Below are positions 35,664 through 50,617 of a stretch of 64,000 nt of DNA, in pieces (positions within the stretch are counted from its first letter, which is position 1; each line of letters begins with the position of its first letter). Below the pieces are notes generated by a model. That model did not search any database. It was not told the origin of the DNA and saw only the letters and a program-made list of their open reading frames with translations. This stretch comes from Candidatus Ryanbacteria bacterium RIFCSPLOWO2_12_FULL_44_26 (GTDB taxonomy: Bacteria; Patescibacteriota; Minisyncoccia; Ryanbacterales; HO2-45-13). The translations under genes and the position numbers were made by a program. The DNA is taken from contig MHOA01000001.1 in NCBI GenBank assembly GCA_001821765.1, forward strand, positions 174,078 through 238,077, given 5' to 3'.

Positions 35664-35737
35664 TGGGCACGGATGGACTCGAACCATCGACCTCTTCATT
35701 ATCAGTGAAGTGCTCTAACCAACTGAGCTACGTGCCC
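35664..35737 (-). tRNA. tRNA-Ile (anticodon GAT)
   Basis: Minus strand GGGCACGTAGCTCAGTTGGTTAGAGCACTTCACTGATAATGAAGAGGTCGATGGTTCGAGTCCATCCGTGCCCA. Anticodon stem CTTCA/TGAAG with loop CTGATAA. Confidence 0.88.
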
Positions 35738-36231: not shown

Positions 36232-36548
36232 ATTATTTAAAAGATAAGAAGTAATACGACCTTATAAGAGTGTTTTTAGCAGTGTGGTAACCGCTATCGC
36301 TGTTATAAGCATTACGCCAATAATAAAACACCTTTTTCTCTATTCTATACCTTATATAGGAAAAGAAAGATTGCAAGCTCATTTGAACGTTATTAAGAAT
36401 CCGCCGAATAGGCCGCCATTTAAAGGTTGAACGGCCAACACCTTTAAACCATTTTGTAGTTTGTAATGTATAGTCCAAAGTCAGACTAAGGACTATCAAC
36501 TATAAACTGGGTTAATCGACCTGGTAAGAATATAAATCCTTACTAGGA

Positions 36549-38770
<2,222 letters not shown>

Positions 38771-39266
38771 AAAGTCTGTATTGCTTCGCACTTCAACCAA
38801 CTTCGCAAAAGCGTCAGCTGGCGAAGAACGAAATCCTGCCTGCCCCGTATAAATCGCGAAGCGATTTTGTTCGGGGAGACAGGATCAAACTCTTAAGTTA
38901 TTCGACGGATTCTTAATAACATAATGCGTCAGCGTTTTGCAGTTTTGGGCTTGACGATAGTCAAGCATATCATCCAAAACTTATATCTTAAACGCATCAA
39001 CATTTTATGGTACTTAATTGTCAACGTGCTTTCAAAATACAACCGCGACTATCTCACATTCTCAGAAACAGTCGCGGGTGTACTTGGATTTTCAATGTAT
39101 TTAGATTTGCTAATTTCCTTCATCCATACATCTCCCTAGTTCTATACGTTTATTATATGGCAGCAGAAGTAGTTGTCAAGCCCTCTTTTTTAAAGTGTGG
39201 AAAAGCGTTAGACCTAAAAAGAATGCGTGATAAGCATAAAACATACTTCAGAAAACCGACACCGAA

Positions 39267-40847: not shown

Positions 40848-42623
40848 TTATGCCACCTCGACACTATAACATTGTTCGCAATACACCGTCTCTAATCTTT
40901 CAAGTGCGTACGAAGTCTCAAATTCATTCGGACAGCGACCAGGTTTATGGAAATGTTCGGCTGTATTTTGGTATATACCATTATCGGATTTCGTGCCGCT
41001 ACACGTACATTTCCGGTGCCAGAGTTTTAAAGGGTTGCGCTGTTTAATTCTCTGGTAGTGCCTGCAGTTAGGACAAAGTCTTGGAAAGGAAAGGTTTTGC
41101 TTTCTATAAAACTCCAGTTCTTGTGGAATTATTCTAAAGGCTACTGAGCAGTTTTCATTGCATTTTCCCTTGTGCTCGCAACCGATGATTTGGTTTAAAA
41201 TATCATCGGTGATATCTTTAATGTGGTTAGGAAGATTTTGTGGCTGGATAGTAACATTGTGTTCTTTGGCTTCTGGATTTTTCCATGAATAACCCCATTC
41301 TAAAATCTCTTCCTTTGTAAATGGGAGATATTCTTGGGCCATTGTTTCATTATATGCAAAGGGAGAAAATTCTGTGGGAAAGAATTCTCCATATTTATAT
41401 ATCCTTTTTTTCTTGTCCACATATGGCATTTCATTCATATGTTCTATTATTTTTGGTATCAGTTTCTCGTATTCTTCTTTAGTATATTGCTTATTTAAAA
41501 CACAGTATTGTTTATTCCGAAGTCCATTACAACCAAAAATATCAGAACAGTCCCTACAATTATATGAGTATTGGACGTTGTGGCCCTGAATAATATTTTG
41601 AGAGAAAAGAACCCGATATCCCCATGCTGTATCAACCTCATAACAGAGTTGCGATTCTTCTCCAGTCTCAACAAGGTCATAACTATCTTTTACAGCTGTG
41701 GCAATTAGGACATTTTTACAATTCTCAGTAGAAGATGTTAAAGGATCAATATCAAAACAAAACGTACAATTCTTTGCGTTCGTAACGTTGTTTCCAGTCG
41801 TATTTACTGAATTGAATAAATGTGCGTAGCGACGGGGAAATGTTTTCTTTAGCTCTTCAAATTCTTTTCTCAACTTCTTTACAGTTTCTTGATTTCCTAA
41901 ATTATATTGAGAGATTTTTTTCTTATATTCTTCTTCTTGGTAGGGCTTATTGAAAATATGATACGATTTGTTGCGAAGACCTATGCAGCCAAAGCAGTGA
42001 TGACAATTGACACAATCATAGAGAAATGAAGAATTATAGCATTCAGCCGCATATTGCGAATGAGTAACATTGTAACAATGTGCGCAGTCAATTGTTTCAT
42101 AACAATTCTCTGAATCTATAAGATAAAAATAATCAGCACTATTTTTCACATTTCTCGTATAATGCCCATAGAGACAATCCTCTGCCATAAAGCCGACTGT
42201 ACGGTAGCAGTTTTTAGAAGAGTTTATTAGAGAACAATAATGACAATTGATAGAATTCAGTGTATTAAGGTTTTGTCGAGGAACAACATCAAAGAGTTCC
42301 TTTAACTGCTTAAAAAATGGGGTGGAGAAATTATACGTTCTTTCATATTCTTGAGGATCCCATTTCTCTGACCTCCAGATTTCTTCTCTAAATACAGGAA
42401 ACGGAACGTCAGGAGAAAAAATAGAGACGATTTCTTTCCCATCAAAACTATCTTTACGCTTAAAAAGAGTACGTTCGTTTATAGTTGCCAGTCTTCGATG
42501 GAACCGACACTCCGGGCACCATGTGGGCGGCGGCACTTTTATTTTCTCGTAAAACACAAGGTCTTCCGACTCAATAGTAAATTCTTTCTTACAATTCTGA
42601 CAATTTTTTATTTCACTAATCAT
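40848..42623 (-). CDS. cysteine-rich protein with terminal zinc ribbons and internal Cys-rich repeats (uncharacterised)
   Basis: 591 aa with about 60 Cys. The N-terminal 'CQNCKKEFTIESEDLVFYEKIKVPPPTWCPECRFHRR' parallels the C-terminal 'CSVAFRIIPQELEFYRKQNLSFPRLCPNCRHYQR'. Internal repeats 'YDCVNCHHCFGCIGLRNKSYHIFNKPYQEEEYKK' and 'YNCRDCSDIFGCNGLRNKQYCVLNKQYTKEEYEK'. Confidence 0.5.
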   Translation of the reverse strand: MISEIKNCQNCKKEFTIESEDLVFYEKIKVPPPTWCPECRFHRRLATINERTLFKRKDSFDGKEIVSIFSPDVPFPVFREEIWRSEKWDPQEYERTYNFSTPFFKQLKELFDVVPRQNLNTLNSINCHYCSLINSSKNCYRTVGFMAEDCLYGHYTRNVKNSADYFYLIDSENCYETIDCAHCYNVTHSQYAAECYNSSFLYDCVNCHHCFGCIGLRNKSYHIFNKPYQEEEYKKKISQYNLGNQETVKKLRKEFEELKKTFPRRYAHLFNSVNTTGNNVTNAKNCTFCFDIDPLTSSTENCKNVLIATAVKDSYDLVETGEESQLCYEVDTAWGYRVLFSQNIIQGHNVQYSYNCRDCSDIFGCNGLRNKQYCVLNKQYTKEEYEKLIPKIIEHMNEMPYVDKKKRIYKYGEFFPTEFSPFAYNETMAQEYLPFTKEEILEWGYSWKNPEAKEHNVTIQPQNLPNHIKDITDDILNQIIGCEHKGKCNENCSVAFRIIPQELEFYRKQNLSFPRLCPNCRHYQRIKQRNPLKLWHRKCTCSGTKSDNGIYQNTAEHFHKPGRCPNEFETSYALERLETVYCEQCYSVEVA

Positions 42624-42730: not shown

Positions 42731-43735
42731 TTATTTGTTTAATTCAGCAGAAGCTGTATGAATTTCTTCTTTGGCTATTTCCCACATCTCTGGGTGACCA
42801 TTTTCTTTAAGCCAATACCACCACTCTACTCCCCATAAGTAGAATGTGTCAAAACCAGATTTTTTTGCATATGCAATTGTATCCCGAAACTTCTCTGGGT
42901 TCATAGATTTATATTGCTCTTCAACAGAAACCTCATAGGTCATTTCTTTCTGCCATGATTCTCCCTGCAACTCAATCACCACCATCGGTTTATCCCCCGC
43001 AATCAGCCGCGTCAGTGTGCGCTTTGCCCGAAAAAAACTCGGAGGCAGCGGATATGTAAAATGTCCAATATGGTCATTATAAATGGTGCGATACATTGTC
43101 GTGCCAAATACGTCCCCGCGCCTTGCGGCCGGGATCCAAATAGAAAGTTCTCCTGAATCTGTTATGATGATCGGTTTTTTGGTGAGCGACCGAACGAGCG
43201 CAATTTCGCCGTCAAGATAAAAACGCGCTTCCTTTGGACATTCTCCAAACGACAAAAACGGCTCGTTTTCAACCTGCCACATAGAAACGGCGGGATGACC
43301 GTCGTAGCGCCTTAAAACCGCCTTAATATATGCAAACAACCGTTCCTGCTTGTCTTTACCGTCCAGAAGAGTCGCCCATTTTGGAATATGACACTCCGGC
43401 CACCTTGGGAGTTTCATTCCGACAGCCACTATCACTTTTCCGCCGCGCTTGTTGGCTTCTTCAAGCTGCCAGTCAAGCTCAGAAAAATCAAATGAATCTT
43501 TTTTTGGTTCAATTTCATTCCAATAAGCTGGCAGACGCACATGTTTTATTCCAAGATCATCAAAAAGCGCCGTATACACTTCGCGCGAATCAAGACCAAA
43601 ACGTTCTGCATAAAAACCTACATAGGTCACTCCAAACTGTTTTACATCAAGCCTTGGGCTTTCCAGAACAAGTAAAGAAGCAAGCGCGACCAATAGTGCC
43701 ACAATTCCTAATGCATGTTTTAATCGTCTGTTCAT
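42731..43735 (-). CDS. secreted glycoside hydrolase, clan GH-A (GH5/GH113-like TIM barrel)
   Basis: 334 aa with a signal peptide. 'WQVENEP' is a catalytic acid/base NEP motif; Trp-rich barrel strands. Confidence 0.6.
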   Translation of the reverse strand: MNRRLKHALGIVALLVALASLLVLESPRLDVKQFGVTYVGFYAERFGLDSREVYTALFDDLGIKHVRLPAYWNEIEPKKDSFDFSELDWQLEEANKRGGKVIVAVGMKLPRWPECHIPKWATLLDGKDKQERLFAYIKAVLRRYDGHPAVSMWQVENEPFLSFGECPKEARFYLDGEIALVRSLTKKPIIITDSGELSIWIPAARRGDVFGTTMYRTIYNDHIGHFTYPLPPSFFRAKRTLTRLIAGDKPMVVIELQGESWQKEMTYEVSVEEQYKSMNPEKFRDTIAYAKKSGFDTFYLWGVEWWYWLKENGHPEMWEIAKEEIHTASAELNK

Positions 43736-44667
43736 GAAAACGGAAATGTATACAAAAAAAGACCCGCGCCGATAATAACAACTCCAAGAAATTTCTGCAC
43801 AATGACGCCCTTGCGGAGGGATTCTCTTATAACTACCGGTACAAAAATGCTAAAAAGCAGTGTCATAAAGAATACAAATAAATACTCAATTCCCTTAAGA
43901 GCAACAACGAGTTTTTCTGATCCCAAAAAAATTGCATAGTTGAGCAGTAAAAATCCAAAAGCCCCTATTATTTTATTTGCAAGAAAAATGCCCAAAGAAG
44001 ATCGTTTTATGGAAACATGAGAGGTAAAAACAATTTTTCTTAAGACCGGTATCAACAGAATGAAAACTGCCACAAGAAAACTGCCAAAGCGCATCCAAAC
44101 GAATCCAGACACAAATGACTTTACACTGCCTTCTATAAAAACCGCAGAAAACTCAAAAACCTCTTTTGTTACGCTAAATGAAATGGCAAAGAAAAGCCCG
44201 GAAATAAATGTTGGGGCAACTAACAAGTAATTGAATGAGAGCGTTTGCTTTCCTGTATGAATCATGAAAAAGAGCCCTCCCACAACAAACAAGATAAACG
44301 CCAATAATTCTTTTGTTTCTAAAGATGAGCTGAATATGCTGAAAGAGATAATGAGCGTAAAAATCGGCGTAAAAACTCCTGCAGTAAGCGGCACAACACG
44401 GGAAGCTTCAAATGAACGCATCGCCCGATAAAAAAAATAATACCCTACCATAAGAGTTGCACCAGCAGACAACGCCAATAATATTATATGGAGAGGGAAC
44501 ACTGAAAACCCGAACGGAACAAGTACAACAACACCAACACTTAATATGCTGGTATAAAAAGCATACGTGAGGGGCTCTGGAATACGGGATGTAAGGAGTA
44601 CCTTATCTATGACGGCGGCGAGTCCGCTTAAAAAATATGAGCTAATGGCGATCGGTAACCACAACAT
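43732..44667 (-). CDS. DMT-superfamily (EamA-like) 10-TM transporter
   Basis: 311 aa, two 5-TM halves. Confidence 0.5.
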   Translation of the reverse strand: MLWLPIAISSYFLSGLAAVIDKVLLTSRIPEPLTYAFYTSILSVGVVVLVPFGFSVFPLHIILLALSAGATLMVGYYFFYRAMRSFEASRVVPLTAGVFTPIFTLIISFSIFSSSLETKELLAFILFVVGGLFFMIHTGKQTLSFNYLLVAPTFISGLFFAISFSVTKEVFEFSAVFIEGSVKSFVSGFVWMRFGSFLVAVFILLIPVLRKIVFTSHVSIKRSSLGIFLANKIIGAFGFLLLNYAIFLGSEKLVVALKGIEYLFVFFMTLLFSIFVPVVIRESLRKGVIVQKFLGVVIIGAGLFLYTFPFS

Positions 44668-46695: not shown

Positions 46696-48897
46696 TTACT
46701 CAGCTACTTCCAACGCTTGTTCAAATTGAAGCGACAGTAACTTGGAAATTCCTTCGCCACCTATTGTGACGCCATATAAAACGCCGGCGGCACGCATCGT
46801 TTCACGGTTGTGCGTGATAACAATCAGCTGGGTTTTTTTGCTTAAATTTTTAAGCAGCGTTGCATACCTTTGTGAATTGGCCTCATCAAGCGCCGCATCG
46901 GTTTCATCAAGCACCAGAAACGGTGGAGGATTTACAGCCGACATTGCAAAAAGAAGAGCGATGGACGTCAGCGCTCGTTCCCCCCCAGAAAGCATAGCAA
47001 GGGAGTGAATGCGTTTTCCCGGGATACTAACAGAAACCTCAATACCGCTTTTGGAATCCTCCCGCAGCGAGGGTTGAAACAATACATCTTCCGATGTGTT
47101 TTCTTCTTTCTCTTTCCCTGTATATTTTCTCTGCTCTATGGTTTTGATTTCCGCACGGCCACCGCCGAACATCCTGTCGAAGAATTCCTGAAAAGCCGTG
47201 TTAATTTTATCAACTCCTTCCTGAAATTCACGCTCAAGCTTCTCTGTTAATTCCTTCACAAGACTCCTTAAGGATTTCAGCGCCTGCACTAAATCGTCTA
47301 ACTGATTTGTGAGAAACGAATCTCTTTCCGAAACCTCCTCGTACTCTTTTAGCACTGCCATATCTATAGCTCCTGATTCTTCCATCTTTATCCTTAACTT
47401 GTCCAATTTTTTCCGCTCATTTACTCTCTCATCCTCATCTGCAAAAAGTTGAGCCGAGGAAATATCAATATCAGTGGCATGAAAGAATCGTGAGGCTTCT
47501 CCCTTCAGATGCGAAAGTTCATTTTCTAACAGGCGAATCTTTTCCAATTCAAAATCAAATTCTTTCAATTGCTTTCTTATCTCATCCAAATCCCTCTCCT
47601 TTAACCGCAGCTTCCGCTCATCATCCCTTAAAGCAACAAACCTTTTTCTATACAACTCCTCCGCTGTTTCTCTTTGTTGAAGCAATTGCTGCAGCTTATC
47701 CGCAGTTTCCGCTAACGTTCTTGTGATTTGCTCTCGTTCTTTTTGAAGTGATTTCTGCATTTCTGTGCGTGGCGATGCCATTTTATCAATCAAGCCAAGC
47801 ACTTTGTGCATTCTTGTTTTAAGCTTTTTCATGTCTGCTTTTATATCTTCGATATTATCCCGAGACACTATTATATTAATAAATTGAATAAATTCTCCGA
47901 TTGCAGTTTGTACATAGCCAGCTGAAATGGATTTCTCCTGCTCTGGGCCCCTCACGCCAACATCGTCAAGTTTGCCTTCAATACGGCCCAGCTCCCGTTC
48001 AAGTGATCTGCTGCGCGCCTGCAGTTCCTGAATACTGCGTTCAACGCTTTCTTTTGCGTTTGCGCTTTGTTTGTCATCTTCATGGGCTTTCGCCGTTTCT
48101 TGTATGTATTTCAGCAAATCAAGAGTCTCATCATGTTTTTTTAAAAGAGGATTTTTCTTTTCCGCAATTGATGCTCTTGCCTCCTGAATAGTACGTTCTT
48201 CACGAGTGATATACACACGGAACTGCGCTATGAGGTTTTCTCTTAAGGTTTCCGTGTTGCGCATTTTTTCCGCTTGCTTGCGCAGATACTTTAAATGCGG
48301 GTTGATCTCCTTTTGTATAAGCTTTACCTGTTTTATATTTTCCTCTGTCGCTTCCATCTTCTTTACAGCTTCATCCCTCTTTATGTGATACCCTTTAAGT
48401 CCGAGAGCATCTTCTATCATCTCTTTCCTTTCTTCCGGAGAAGCAAGCAAGATACGATCGGATTCCCCCTGTGAGATAATATGATGCTGAGTAGACCCGA
48501 GGCCGACTCTAGAAAGCAGTTCAGCGATATCTTTAAGACGCACCTGCGAGCCGTTAATGAGATACTGATTCGCGCCATCACGTGTAACCCTCCGTGTAAT
48601 AATCACTTCATCAAATGCTATCGAGAATTTTTTATTCATATTATCAAATACAAGCGAAGCGGATGCGCGGCCCAAACGCGGGGCTTTCGATGATCCGCTA
48701 AAAATGAAATCCTCTCCGCGCTTCCCGCGAAGCGTTTTTAAGGATTGTTCACCCAATACCCATCGTATAGCTTCTGCTACGTTAGATTTACCAGCGCCAT
48801 TTGGACCTACAATAGCCGTTATTGAGGTGAGAAATTCAAATATCGTTTGTTTCGCGAACGATTTAAATCCGGAAAGTTCAAGCCGTTTTAGGTACAT
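46696..48897 (-). CDS. smc: SMC-like chromosome segregation ATPase (short form)
   Basis: Start at 'MYLKRLELSGFKSF'. Walker A 'GPNGAGKSN', a long coiled coil, signature 'LSGGERALTSIALLFA', and Walker B 'FLVLDETDAALD'. Confidence 0.75.
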   Translation of the reverse strand: MYLKRLELSGFKSFAKQTIFEFLTSITAIVGPNGAGKSNVAEAIRWVLGEQSLKTLRGKRGEDFIFSGSSKAPRLGRASASLVFDNMNKKFSIAFDEVIITRRVTRDGANQYLINGSQVRLKDIAELLSRVGLGSTQHHIISQGESDRILLASPEERKEMIEDALGLKGYHIKRDEAVKKMEATEENIKQVKLIQKEINPHLKYLRKQAEKMRNTETLRENLIAQFRVYITREERTIQEARASIAEKKNPLLKKHDETLDLLKYIQETAKAHEDDKQSANAKESVERSIQELQARSRSLERELGRIEGKLDDVGVRGPEQEKSISAGYVQTAIGEFIQFINIIVSRDNIEDIKADMKKLKTRMHKVLGLIDKMASPRTEMQKSLQKEREQITRTLAETADKLQQLLQQRETAEELYRKRFVALRDDERKLRLKERDLDEIRKQLKEFDFELEKIRLLENELSHLKGEASRFFHATDIDISSAQLFADEDERVNERKKLDKLRIKMEESGAIDMAVLKEYEEVSERDSFLTNQLDDLVQALKSLRSLVKELTEKLEREFQEGVDKINTAFQEFFDRMFGGGRAEIKTIEQRKYTGKEKEENTSEDVLFQPSLREDSKSGIEVSVSIPGKRIHSLAMLSGGERALTSIALLFAMSAVNPPPFLVLDETDAALDEANSQRYATLLKNLSKKTQLIVITHNRETMRAAGVLYGVTIGGEGISKLLSLQFEQALEVAE

Positions 48898-49022
48898 ACC
48901 ACCAAAAAAAACCAAAACTCAAATATCAAAAATCAACATGACGATATTCCGCTTCGCTGGATTATTGATAGTCCCGCCTCGCCGGGACACCATAATGTTG
49001 CATCTTGAACTTATTGTGTATT

Positions 49023-49715
49023 TTATTGCCACCGTTTTACCTGTAACCCCAGCTGAGCCGCTGCCGCTTCAGCTTCCTGTTTTGATAAACCATCCCCTTC
49101 CGCAACTAATTCGTCTTTTAAAAAAACCCCAACGCGAAAAAATCTTCTGTGATCCGGGCCTTCTTCGCTCAGTACCCTGTATGTTGGTGTTATGCCCACA
49201 CGTTCCTGCGCCTCTTCCTGAAAAGAACTTTTTGGGTCCTTCCATAGTTTTTTTTCCACAATGTCTTTAGCATAGGGCATCAGGACTTTTTGAAGAAACG
49301 TGCTTACGGCTTTATATCCCTGATCCAGATATATCGCGCCAACAACCGCCTCAAAAGTATTGGCCAAGATGTAGTCACGAGCTCTTCCGACATCTTTTGT
49401 CTCCCCTCGGGACAGAAGAAGATGGGAATTAAAACCAAGCTTTCGGGCTACCGTTGAGAGCATATCGGCGTTTACCAATGCAGCTCTTATGCTGGTAAGT
49501 TCTCCCTCCGGTTTATCAGGATATTCGGTATACAAACATTCAGTAATAACGAGTTCAATAACTGCATCCCCTAAAAACTCCAACCGTTCATTGTGTCCGA
49601 GTCGAAATCCAGGGTTCTCATTTAAATAGGAACGATGGGTAAGCGCCTGTAATAAAAGATCTTTGTTTTTAAATGTCACTCCAAACTCCTTTTCGAGCGA
49701 TGAGAAACTTTTCAT
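49023..49715 (-). CDS. rnc: ribonuclease III
   Basis: 'NERLEFLGDAVIELVITECLY' RNase III signature plus a C-terminal dsRBD. Confidence 0.9.
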   Translation of the reverse strand: MKSFSSLEKEFGVTFKNKDLLLQALTHRSYLNENPGFRLGHNERLEFLGDAVIELVITECLYTEYPDKPEGELTSIRAALVNADMLSTVARKLGFNSHLLLSRGETKDVGRARDYILANTFEAVVGAIYLDQGYKAVSTFLQKVLMPYAKDIVEKKLWKDPKSSFQEEAQERVGITPTYRVLSEEGPDHRRFFRVGVFLKDELVAEGDGLSKQEAEAAAAQLGLQVKRWQ

Positions 49716-50617
49716 GTCTGTTGTTGAAGAACCGTTAAGGCGGCTTGAAAAATCTTTTTAATATCCGGATATGTCTTTATATTTAAAAGCTCTGATTCGC
49801 TCAACCATTGCGCTTGCACAAGCCCTCCAGACTGCTTTAGTTTTAAAACTTTATCAGTTGTCTCAACGAGAAAATACGCAACGCGTTTCCGTATCGGACC
49901 GCGCTCCGGATCGTGAGCGACATACTCATTGGCGCCAAGTTCTTTTTTGACAACAAGGTGCGTAATACCTAACTCTTTGCTGAGTTCTCTTTTCACAACT
50001 CCGCTAGGGTTTTCGTCTTTCCCGATACCTCCCTTAGAAAGAGTCCAGTATCCAAACACATCGAGCACAAGCGCAAACAAGAATTGATCCTTCTCTTTTC
50101 TGTAAACCACCCCTCCAACTTTATCGTCACAGGGAAGTTTTTTTATCTCTTCGGCTGTTAAACCTTTTTTCGCATGAGCGTCTTTTCCCGGCTCCCCCAT
50201 CTCCCGATACACAGTACCAACCACACCATTGATAAATTTTCCAGACTTTTCTCCTCCAAAAGTTTTGGCCAGTTCGATTGCCTCGTTAATCGCAACTTTG
50301 GGCGGCACCTCTTTATAATTTCCAAAAATAAGTTCCCACAGCCCTATACGCAAAATATTCCTGTCAACAATGGCTATCTGGGAAAGCGGCCATTCTGGAG
50401 CTGCTTTTGTAATCAGCTCATTGAGAGCATCATGCTTTTCGAGAACCCCATGGATCAGTTGCCGAGAAAATTCTTTTTCTTCCAAGCCCGGGCCAAATTC
50501 CTTAAGATTGCGTTCCAGAATGGAGTCAATATCAACTTTGCCGTGTCGCGATCCGCGAAAATCCCACTCATAAAGCGTCTGCATTGCAATTGATCTTGCT
50601 AAATGCCGGGAAGCCAT
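49712..50617 (-). CDS. nusB: NusB antitermination factor fused to a C-terminal NUDIX hydrolase domain
   Basis: Residues 1-145 are NusB-like ('ARSIAMQTLYEWDF...DRNILRIGLWELIF'). Residues ~165-301 carry the Nudix box 'GGIGKDENPSGVVKRELSKELGI'. Confidence 0.75.
   Translation of the reverse strand: MASRHLARSIAMQTLYEWDFRGSRHGKVDIDSILERNLKEFGPGLEEKEFSRQLIHGVLEKHDALNELITKAAPEWPLSQIAIVDRNILRIGLWELIFGNYKEVPPKVAINEAIELAKTFGGEKSGKFINGVVGTVYREMGEPGKDAHAKKGLTAEEIKKLPCDDKVGGVVYRKEKDQFLFALVLDVFGYWTLSKGGIGKDENPSGVVKRELSKELGITHLVVKKELGANEYVAHDPERGPIRKRVAYFLVETTDKVLKLKQSGGLVQAQWLSESELLNIKTYPDIKKIFQAALTVLQQQT

Follow-up and report, generated by a model that had tools for sequence, protein, structure and literature searches.

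A NusB protein of Candidatus Ryanbacteria extended by a conserved Nudix-fold domain with a variable Nudix box and a putative adenine/phosphate pocket

In a 64,000-nucleotide (nt) stretch of DNA from Candidatus Ryanbacteria bacterium RIFCSPLOWO2_12_FULL_44_26 (contig MHOA01000001.1, hereafter the window), a single uninterrupted open reading frame (ORF) on the minus strand (49712..50617) was found to encode a NusB protein of 301 amino acids (aa), followed by a stop codon, that continues through a linker into a Nudix-fold domain of the diadenosine polyphosphate (Ap(n)A) hydrolase type. The fusion is genuine, conserved and old. Judged from the alignment of its homologues, selection preserves an adenine/phosphate pocket in the Nudix domain and relaxes the cluster of metal-binding glutamates. 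On balance we lean towards the view that the protein is a NusB to which a domain for binding an adenine nucleotide or an RNA 5′ end is tethered, and in which hydrolysis would be optional.

Residues are numbered here from the ATG at position 50617. Both domains were recognised by Pfam, NusB (PF01029) at aa 7-138 with an E-value of 7.5e-34 and NUDIX (PF00293) at aa 167-291 with an E-value of 8.2e-10 (39.3 bits against a gathering cut-off of 21.1). The NCBIfam equivalog model of nusB, TIGR01951, gave 128.4 bits (cut-off 88.35), and weak NCBIfam matches to RsmB fell on the NusB part. An AlphaFold2 model built from 62 homologues, with a mean predicted local distance difference test score (pLDDT) of 90, contained seven helices (aa 2-140) and an alpha/beta Nudix fold (aa 163-300). 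The seven-helix NusB domain was delimited to aa 1-142 (50192..50617, minus strand) from PF01029, TIGR01951 and Foldseek, and the Nudix-fold domain to aa 163-300 (49718..50131, minus strand) from PF00293, Foldseek and a profile search of the PDB. Between them lies a partly disordered linker of about 20 aa (aa 143-162; 50132..50191, minus strand; GEPGKDAHAKKGLTAEEIKKLP), in which aa 143-151 were disordered in the model with pLDDT below 50; its GEPGKD motif also ends the NusB-only relatives. The predicted template modelling score (pTM) was 0.55, and therefore no fixed orientation of the two domains is predicted. In Foldseek comparisons, the NusB half superposed on the NusB proteins of Aquifex, Thermotoga and M. 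tuberculosis, with template modelling scores (TMt) of 0.84-0.89 to the solved structures 3R2C, 3R2D, 4EYA and 1TZV and the value of 0.89, with a root-mean-square deviation (rmsd) of 1.8, to Aquifex 3R2C/3R2D. An earlier note on this DNA had described NusB, linker and Nudix domain within one ORF, and the single frame with both Pfam domains bears this out.

The corresponding GenBank entry, OGZ56066.1, is 290 aa long and begins at Met12, 11 codons downstream of the ATG used here (start region 50585..50617, minus strand). Because residues 1-9 are conserved across the family, with M1, R4, H5, L6, R8 and S9 nearly invariant in the alignment, the ATG at 50617 is taken to be the true start. The databases name the fusion proteins 'transcription antitermination factor NusB', and under this plain label the extra domain is invisible in the public annotation.

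Assemblies of Candidatus Ryanbacteria contained the identical 301-aa protein on 33 contigs. Homologues of the same architecture were recovered by the hundred, down to about 30% identity. Both Pfam domains were found in all 120 of the best 120 clusters at 90% identity, and a search over 1.84 billion representatives at 50% identity, which returned 143 at E <= 1e-30, placed both domains in 75 of the best 150 representatives. When contigs of one genome per species were taken from GTDB, both domains lay within a single ORF in 69 of the 80 best loci, and the loci with the fusion bore the names Ryan-, Giovannoni-, Niyogi-, Nomura-, Kaiser-, Zambryski- and Komeilibacteria, 'Paceibacterota' and Parcubacteria. 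By these counts the fusion is shared by many relatives of this Parcubacteria bacterium. That a sequencing or assembly frameshift had joined two separate genes, a possibility raised earlier for about 50150-50200, has next to no probability: the frame is continuous through the junction, the same protein occurs on 33 contigs, and 161 non-redundant homologues, drawn from independent assemblies, keep the architecture. No stand-alone copy of the family's Nudix domain was seen among these homologues; the single apparent case, P0250, was rejected as a fragment that begins at a contig end and is followed by rnc. Many of the genome records with the fusion are titled 'uncultured Candidatus Saccharibacteria' (L009, L013-L015 and others), and two NusB-only records are titled 'Bdellovibrionales'. 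These titles look like automatic mislabels, because the gene content and the NusB sequences group with Parcubacteria-type relatives.

To which Nudix proteins the C-terminal domain belongs was assessed by fold and by sequence. In the Foldseek search of the PDB the top match was the Aquifex diadenosine tetraphosphate (Ap4A) hydrolase 3I7U (TMt 0.90, rmsd 2.0), followed by Chlamydia CT771 with Ap4A products, mycobacterial MutT1 and the diadenosine polyphosphatase Rv2985, and further by Thermus Ndx1 (an Ap6A hydrolase) and the human and C. elegans Ap4A hydrolases. A profile made from 35 diverse Nudix halves was searched against the PDB at E <= 0.01 and matched CT771 (5e-11), 3I7U (7e-11), Ndx1 (7e-10), NUDT2 (5e-9), the C. 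elegans Ap4A hydrolase (3e-8), the Nudix domain of Dcp2 (7e-6) and, over the box region only, BdRppH 3EES (3.3e-3). No E. coli RppH chain in the PDB was matched by this family profile at the same threshold, and the RppH equivalogs of NCBIfam (PRK00714) scored 12.6-21.1 bits, below their cut-offs of 116-259. Membership of the RppH families was ruled out by these two results, and by sequence and modelled fold the domain is closest to the Ap(n)A hydrolases. The 'RppH-like' label of the earlier note fails as a family assignment and holds in a looser sense, as the Ap(n)A-hydrolase class still resembles RppH in function: NUDT2, its best-known member, acts on 5′-triphosphorylated RNA (PPP-RNA) like RppH (PMC8616924), and RppH itself is an asymmetric Ap4A hydrolase and an enzyme that removes nucleoside-tetraphosphate (Np4) caps (PMC7705103).

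The Nudix box (aa 196-218; 49964..50032, minus strand; GGIGKDENPSGVVKRELSKELGI) is non-canonical when read from the sequence. G196 is followed by GIGKD and E202, then by NPSGVVK and the segment RELSKELGI, which holds R210, E211, K214, E215, G217 and I218. K214 (codon AAA, 49976-49978) puts a lysine at the first glutamate of the EE pair of REUxEE; the query does not carry the complete box GX5EX7REUXEEXGU, and the box had been called canonical in error. For the family as a whole, 234 full-length fusions were reduced to 161 non-redundant sequences (<80% identity). E202, R210, E211, E214 and E215 were all present in only 56 of them (35%), or in 60 when Asp was allowed at position 202. Position 211, the glutamate of 'RE', was E in 66 sequences (41%), K in 40, V in 18, A in 14 and I in 12; it ranked 79th in conservation among the 133 Nudix-domain positions, and a neighbour-joining tree required it to change state at least 29 times. 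E202, R210 and E214 ranked 32nd, 37th and 40th, the only well-kept box residues were E215 and G217, and 47 of the 161 members lacked at least two of the four acidic residues of the box. In the profile alignment, position 211 is equivalent to E58 of NUDT2. The E58A mutant of NUDT2 is inactive on pppRNA, with no processing of pppGpA (PMC8616924), and is the ligand-trapping mutant in structure 4IJX; E215 is equivalent to E50 of Ndx1, the residue mutated in 1VC9. Since the catalytic glutamate is among the less conserved positions, RppH-type hydrolysis cannot be what holds the fusion together.

The query departs from the family at H185L, D267V, D268Q and F272L, besides K214. The E214K change is recent, because the 80%-identical homologue P0003 still has E214. 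An accelerated decay of the Nudix domain in the query lineage was considered and rejected, as the query and P0003 share 87% identity in NusB and 74% in the Nudix half, in line with a family norm of 0.74±0.08 for pairs at this NusB distance. With an intact pocket and a lysine at one of the three glutamates of the helix, the query domain is expected to be a weakened hydrolase at best.

A different picture was obtained for the ligand pocket. Mean pairwise identity within the family was 41.5% for the Nudix half and 56% for NusB, and on this alignment the Nudix domain is evidently under purifying selection. Its most conserved positions were Y283, W191, K195, W271, G168, D186, T192, Y232 and F188. 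The profile alignment to NUDT2 equated position 190 with H37, K195 with K42, Y232 with Y82, K244 with K89, Y283 with F128 and D285 with E130. In a comparison of the Plasmodium and human Ap4A hydrolases, the P1 phosphate is bound by a histidine, Lys42, Tyr82 and Lys89, and the adenine is stacked by a loop-5 tyrosine and Phe128, with its amino group hydrogen-bonded by Glu130 (PMC4734340). The histidine is printed there as 'His32'; we read it as His37 from the +5 spacing to Lys42, a spacing that His43 and Lys48 of Plasmodium also have. The pocket residues were kept in 149-159 of the 161 members, except at position 190 (H/Y/K/R in 150) and position 244 (K/R in 154), and the pocket of the query is complete (Y190, W191, T192, K195, G196, Y232, K244, Y283 and D285). 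The pocket was equally conserved in members with a canonical and with a non-canonical box. A division of the family into two functional classes was not upheld: box state and pocket state showed no correlation, except for a slightly lower retention of D285 in canonical members. A preserved pocket beside a relaxed metal site is the signature of an enzyme fold re-used for binding, as in NUDT21/CFIm25 and the Nudix-type regulators.

The gene neighbourhood was informative about the NusB half. The gene rnc for RNase III (49023..49715, minus strand; Pfam Ribonucleas_3_3 at 1.2e-38, plus dsrm) follows directly on the same strand, as had been pointed out before, and the TGA of the fusion overlaps the rnc ATG by 4 nt as ATGA (49712-49715), which suggests that the two genes are translationally coupled. 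On the other side, rpmF for ribosomal protein L32 (50778..51065, minus strand; Pfam Ribosomal_L32p at 2.3e-14) lies 160 nt upstream of the fusion on the same strand, and it stands upstream of nusB in related loci too. The gene order rnhB-rpmF-nusB(-nudix)-rnc-smc is common to loci with the fusion and loci with NusB only, and almost all 80 related loci have rnc after nusB. No second NusB or Nudix gene was found within the 64-kb window. The 11 NusB-only loci (Moranbacteria, Yanofskybacteria and others) have in the same slot a NusB of 141-192 aa that reaches the GEPGKD motif and then ends in a low-complexity tail with no Nudix domain. Because it occupies the slot of these NusB-only relatives, the NusB half is a positional orthologue and most likely the organism's ordinary NusB, and for the same reason the Nudix domain was appended to a resident NusB in a sub-lineage of Parcubacteria. 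The rnc adjacency is older than the fusion; as it is present without the Nudix domain too, the linkage is uninformative about that domain specifically.

NusB together with S10 binds BoxA in the leader of ribosomal RNA (rRNA) and stays on the elongating polymerase. We propose that in Parcubacteria/Paceibacteria the resident NusB, the subunit of rRNA antitermination that binds BoxA RNA and S10, gained a C-terminal Nudix domain on a flexible linker, by which an adenosine-5′-phosphate pocket would be held beside the emerging transcript. Its ligand may be free Ap4A, another ApnN or ATP, in which case the domain would be a sensor, or it may be the 5′ terminus of the pre-rRNA, either as 5′-(p)ppA or with an Np4 cap. 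Recognition of a nucleotide or of a 5′ end would thus occur where NusB and BoxA sit on the transcribing polymerase, and members with a complete box could additionally hydrolyse what they bind. The earlier note had proposed a coupling of RNA 5′-end or nucleotide processing to antitermination. The idea is reasonable, but such a coupling is more likely to work by binding than by obligatory catalysis, given that the glutamate of 'RE' is found in 66 of 161 members. Should Ap4A-type nucleotides or the 5′ ends of RNA prove to be its ligands, the pocket would give dinucleoside polyphosphates or 5′-end chemistry a concrete target within the transcription machinery, and the family's natural variants, some catalytic and others not, would allow that role to be dissected. 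In a more specific form of the proposal, which we hold to be rather doubtful, the domain would hydrolyse its ligand very slowly or not at all and, as a sensor of an adenine dinucleotide alarmone such as Ap4A, of the ATP level or of the cap/triphosphate status of the nascent pre-rRNA 5′ end, would switch the rRNA antitermination/RNA-chaperone complex. Such a sensor would be a direct, previously unknown link of nucleotide signalling or non-canonical RNA capping to ribosome synthesis, and it would act in bacteria with minimal regulatory repertoires.

Several observations weigh against the proposal of a tethered binder. The pocket residues were mapped by a sequence-profile alignment and not from coordinates. 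Fully canonical boxes are kept by 35-37% of the members, including P0003, so that these may be active enzymes and the family perhaps a mixture. E215 is nearly invariant and E214 mostly kept, and the conserved H185, D186, D267 and D268 might rebuild a metal site with a rewired catalysis. The query itself retains E202, R210, E211 and E215. It is within the 64-kb window, a part of the genome, that the fusion counts as the only NusB. Finally, the 16S leader of the window yielded no BoxA that could be called with confidence, the only candidate being a weak CGTTCTTCG at 38830..38822; the consensus TGYTCTTTRA had 33 matches, compared with 27±5 expected by chance, and none was in the 16S leader.

One alternative is an active RNA 5′-pyrophosphohydrolase or decapping enzyme that NusB brings to the nascent rRNA leader, where it would convert ppp or Np4 ends to 5′-p and license decay or processing of the leader with RNase III. 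We regard this as possible, though clearly less probable than the tethered binder. The closeness of the domain to the Ap(n)A hydrolases fits it, since NUDT2 dephosphorylates PPP-RNA and RppH cleaves Ap4A and Np4 caps, and so do the complete box in about 35% of members, the four residues retained by the query and the operon linkage and ATGA coupling with rnc. It is difficult to reconcile, however, with the residue equivalent to E58, where 59% of members have K, V, A or I after at least 29 independent changes, with the 47 members left with two or fewer acidic box residues, and with K214 in the query. The RppH equivalogs also score far under their cut-offs, E. coli RppH is not matched at E 0.01, and rnc adjoins nusB in the relatives that lack a Nudix domain as well.

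A housekeeping hydrolase that sanitises Ap4A or other nucleotides, fused to NusB in streamlined genomes and having no functional coupling to antitermination, would suit the small patescibacterial genomes and the diverse appendages carried by NusB C-termini, and the flexible linker and the pTM of 0.55 suggest independent domains. Such an enzyme should have retained its catalytic glutamate, which was not observed; moreover, the fusion is stable over many candidate lineages, and P0250, a contig-end fragment, was the nearest thing to a stand-alone copy. We consider this explanation improbable. Slightly more improbable still is a domain that has no nucleotide ligand and serves the antitermination complex only through its structure or its contacts with proteins. 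SuhB, an enzyme-fold protein that serves the rrn antitermination complex of E. coli, would be its model, and the eroded catalytic residues and the possible box-less Nudix remnants kept in some NusB proteins agree with it. But the best-conserved residues are those that bind adenine and phosphate in the Ap4A hydrolases, and this is hard to explain without a nucleotide-like ligand.

Other patescibacterial NusB proteins were also seen to vary at the C-terminus (L068-L080; P0138, P0140, P0243, P0252, P0259, P0270), with acidic or Lys-rich low-complexity tails. One of them starts a Nudix domain and then finishes with a SPOR-like stretch, so that its gene call may be frameshifted or chimeric, and one 264-aa form has an unknown tail. 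Four AT-rich NusB proteins of 268-345 aa (P0243, P0252, P0259, P0270) have a C-terminal region without a Nudix box. When the variants of about 340 aa were compared with the hidden Markov model of the family's Nudix domain, the similarity was insignificant. A low-confidence model (pLDDT 64) nevertheless gave this C-terminal region the beta-beta-beta-alpha-beta-beta-beta-alpha order of Nudix proteins with a long helical insertion, and its non-NusB Foldseek matches were all Nudix, with 3I7U first (E 8e-4). On this model, the group seems to keep a Nudix-like fold without any box, which is to be taken as a lead only. If the box-less fold is real, one lineage retains the domain without any catalytic motif.

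Downstream of rnc, a short SMC-like ATPase of 739 aa is encoded at 46696..48915 (minus strand; Pfam SMC_N at 6.6e-69), and with it the conserved rpmF-nusB-rnc-smc block is complete. In most of the related loci (L001-L080) this protein is about 730-800 aa, much below a typical bacterial SMC, and it has the Walker A/B heads (SMC_N) with no Pfam match to the hinge domain at E <= 1e-5. The 16S rRNA gene (36543..38766, minus strand) is interrupted by a group I intron (37425..37708; Rfam RF00028, 63 bits). In its leader, at about 38744..39190 (minus strand), two sigma70-like TTGACA/TATAAT pairs were picked out by eye, and a second copy of the string at the 16S 5′ end, AGAGTTTGATCCTG, lies at 38893..38880, some 130 nt upstream of the actual 5′ end. 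No 23S gene was found across the 64-kb window, and so the rRNA genes appear unlinked. A tRNA gene is located at 35664..35737, and two minus-strand ORFs, of 311 aa (43732..44667) and 591 aa (40848..42623), had no Pfam match at E <= 1e-5; they sit between trmD and glycosyl-hydrolase genes.

To our knowledge, NusB is universal as a core factor of rRNA transcription and consists of a single domain; an appendage carried throughout a lineage is therefore unusual. The fusion resembles known NusB proteins (TIGR01951/PF01029) in passing the equivalog threshold, in its seven-helix bundle and in occupying the slot of stand-alone nusB, and differs from them in about 160 extra C-terminal residues, the linker and the Nudix domain. 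Full-text literature searches returned nothing relevant on NusB in combination with Nudix, with Patescibacteria or with the candidate phyla radiation, and a large survey of the Nudix clan makes no mention of NusB (PMC5389931). For the Nudix half, the best matches in sequence and fold are the Ap(n)A hydrolases aq_158 (3I7U), CT771 (4ILQ/4MPO), Ndx1 (1VC8), NUDT2 (3U53) and that of C. elegans (1KT9). With these it shares W-T-x-x-K-G, the tyrosine after the box, the lysine and the C-terminal aromatic residue, which in these hydrolases bind the P1 phosphate and adenine; unlike them, the family has often replaced its metal-binding glutamates (E214K here, the E58 equivalent in 59%) and is fused to NusB. 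With RppH (E. coli NudH/YgdP, and those of B. subtilis and Bdellovibrio), which acts on RNA 5′ ends and on ApnA, it has the Nudix fold in common, whereas it scores 12-21 bits with the NCBIfam models of RppH, whose cut-offs are 116-259.

Both parts of the protein are well-known families, and related arrangements have precedents. The 16S rRNA m5C967 methyltransferase RsmB/Sun/Fmu combines a NusB-type domain with an RNA-directed catalytic domain, and its structure 1SQF was among the fold-search matches of the variant model of about 340 aa; in RsmB, however, the NusB-like domain is a paralogue carried on a methyltransferase, whereas here an orthologous NusB carries a Nudix domain. Nudix folds with an altered box that serve binding and not hydrolysis are represented by NUDT21/CFIm25, the regulators NrtR and AraR, and DBC1; Yang 2010 is also cited for this precedent. 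NUDT21/CFIm25 is an RNA-processing factor with the box GX5EX7RLX2EIXGR (PMC5389931). NrtR and AraR were among the weaker structural and sequence matches of the Nudix half, but no specific sequence kinship links the fusion to this group, and the box in the fusion family is eroded only partly and variably. In the mRNA-decapping enzyme Dcp2, too, an N-terminal domain made up of helices alone precedes a Nudix domain. Its full-length Foldseek matches were rejected as homology and put down to a coincidence of architecture, since the helical domains are unrelated (full-length rmsd >10 Å), and, in contrast to the fusion described here, the box of Dcp2 is intact.

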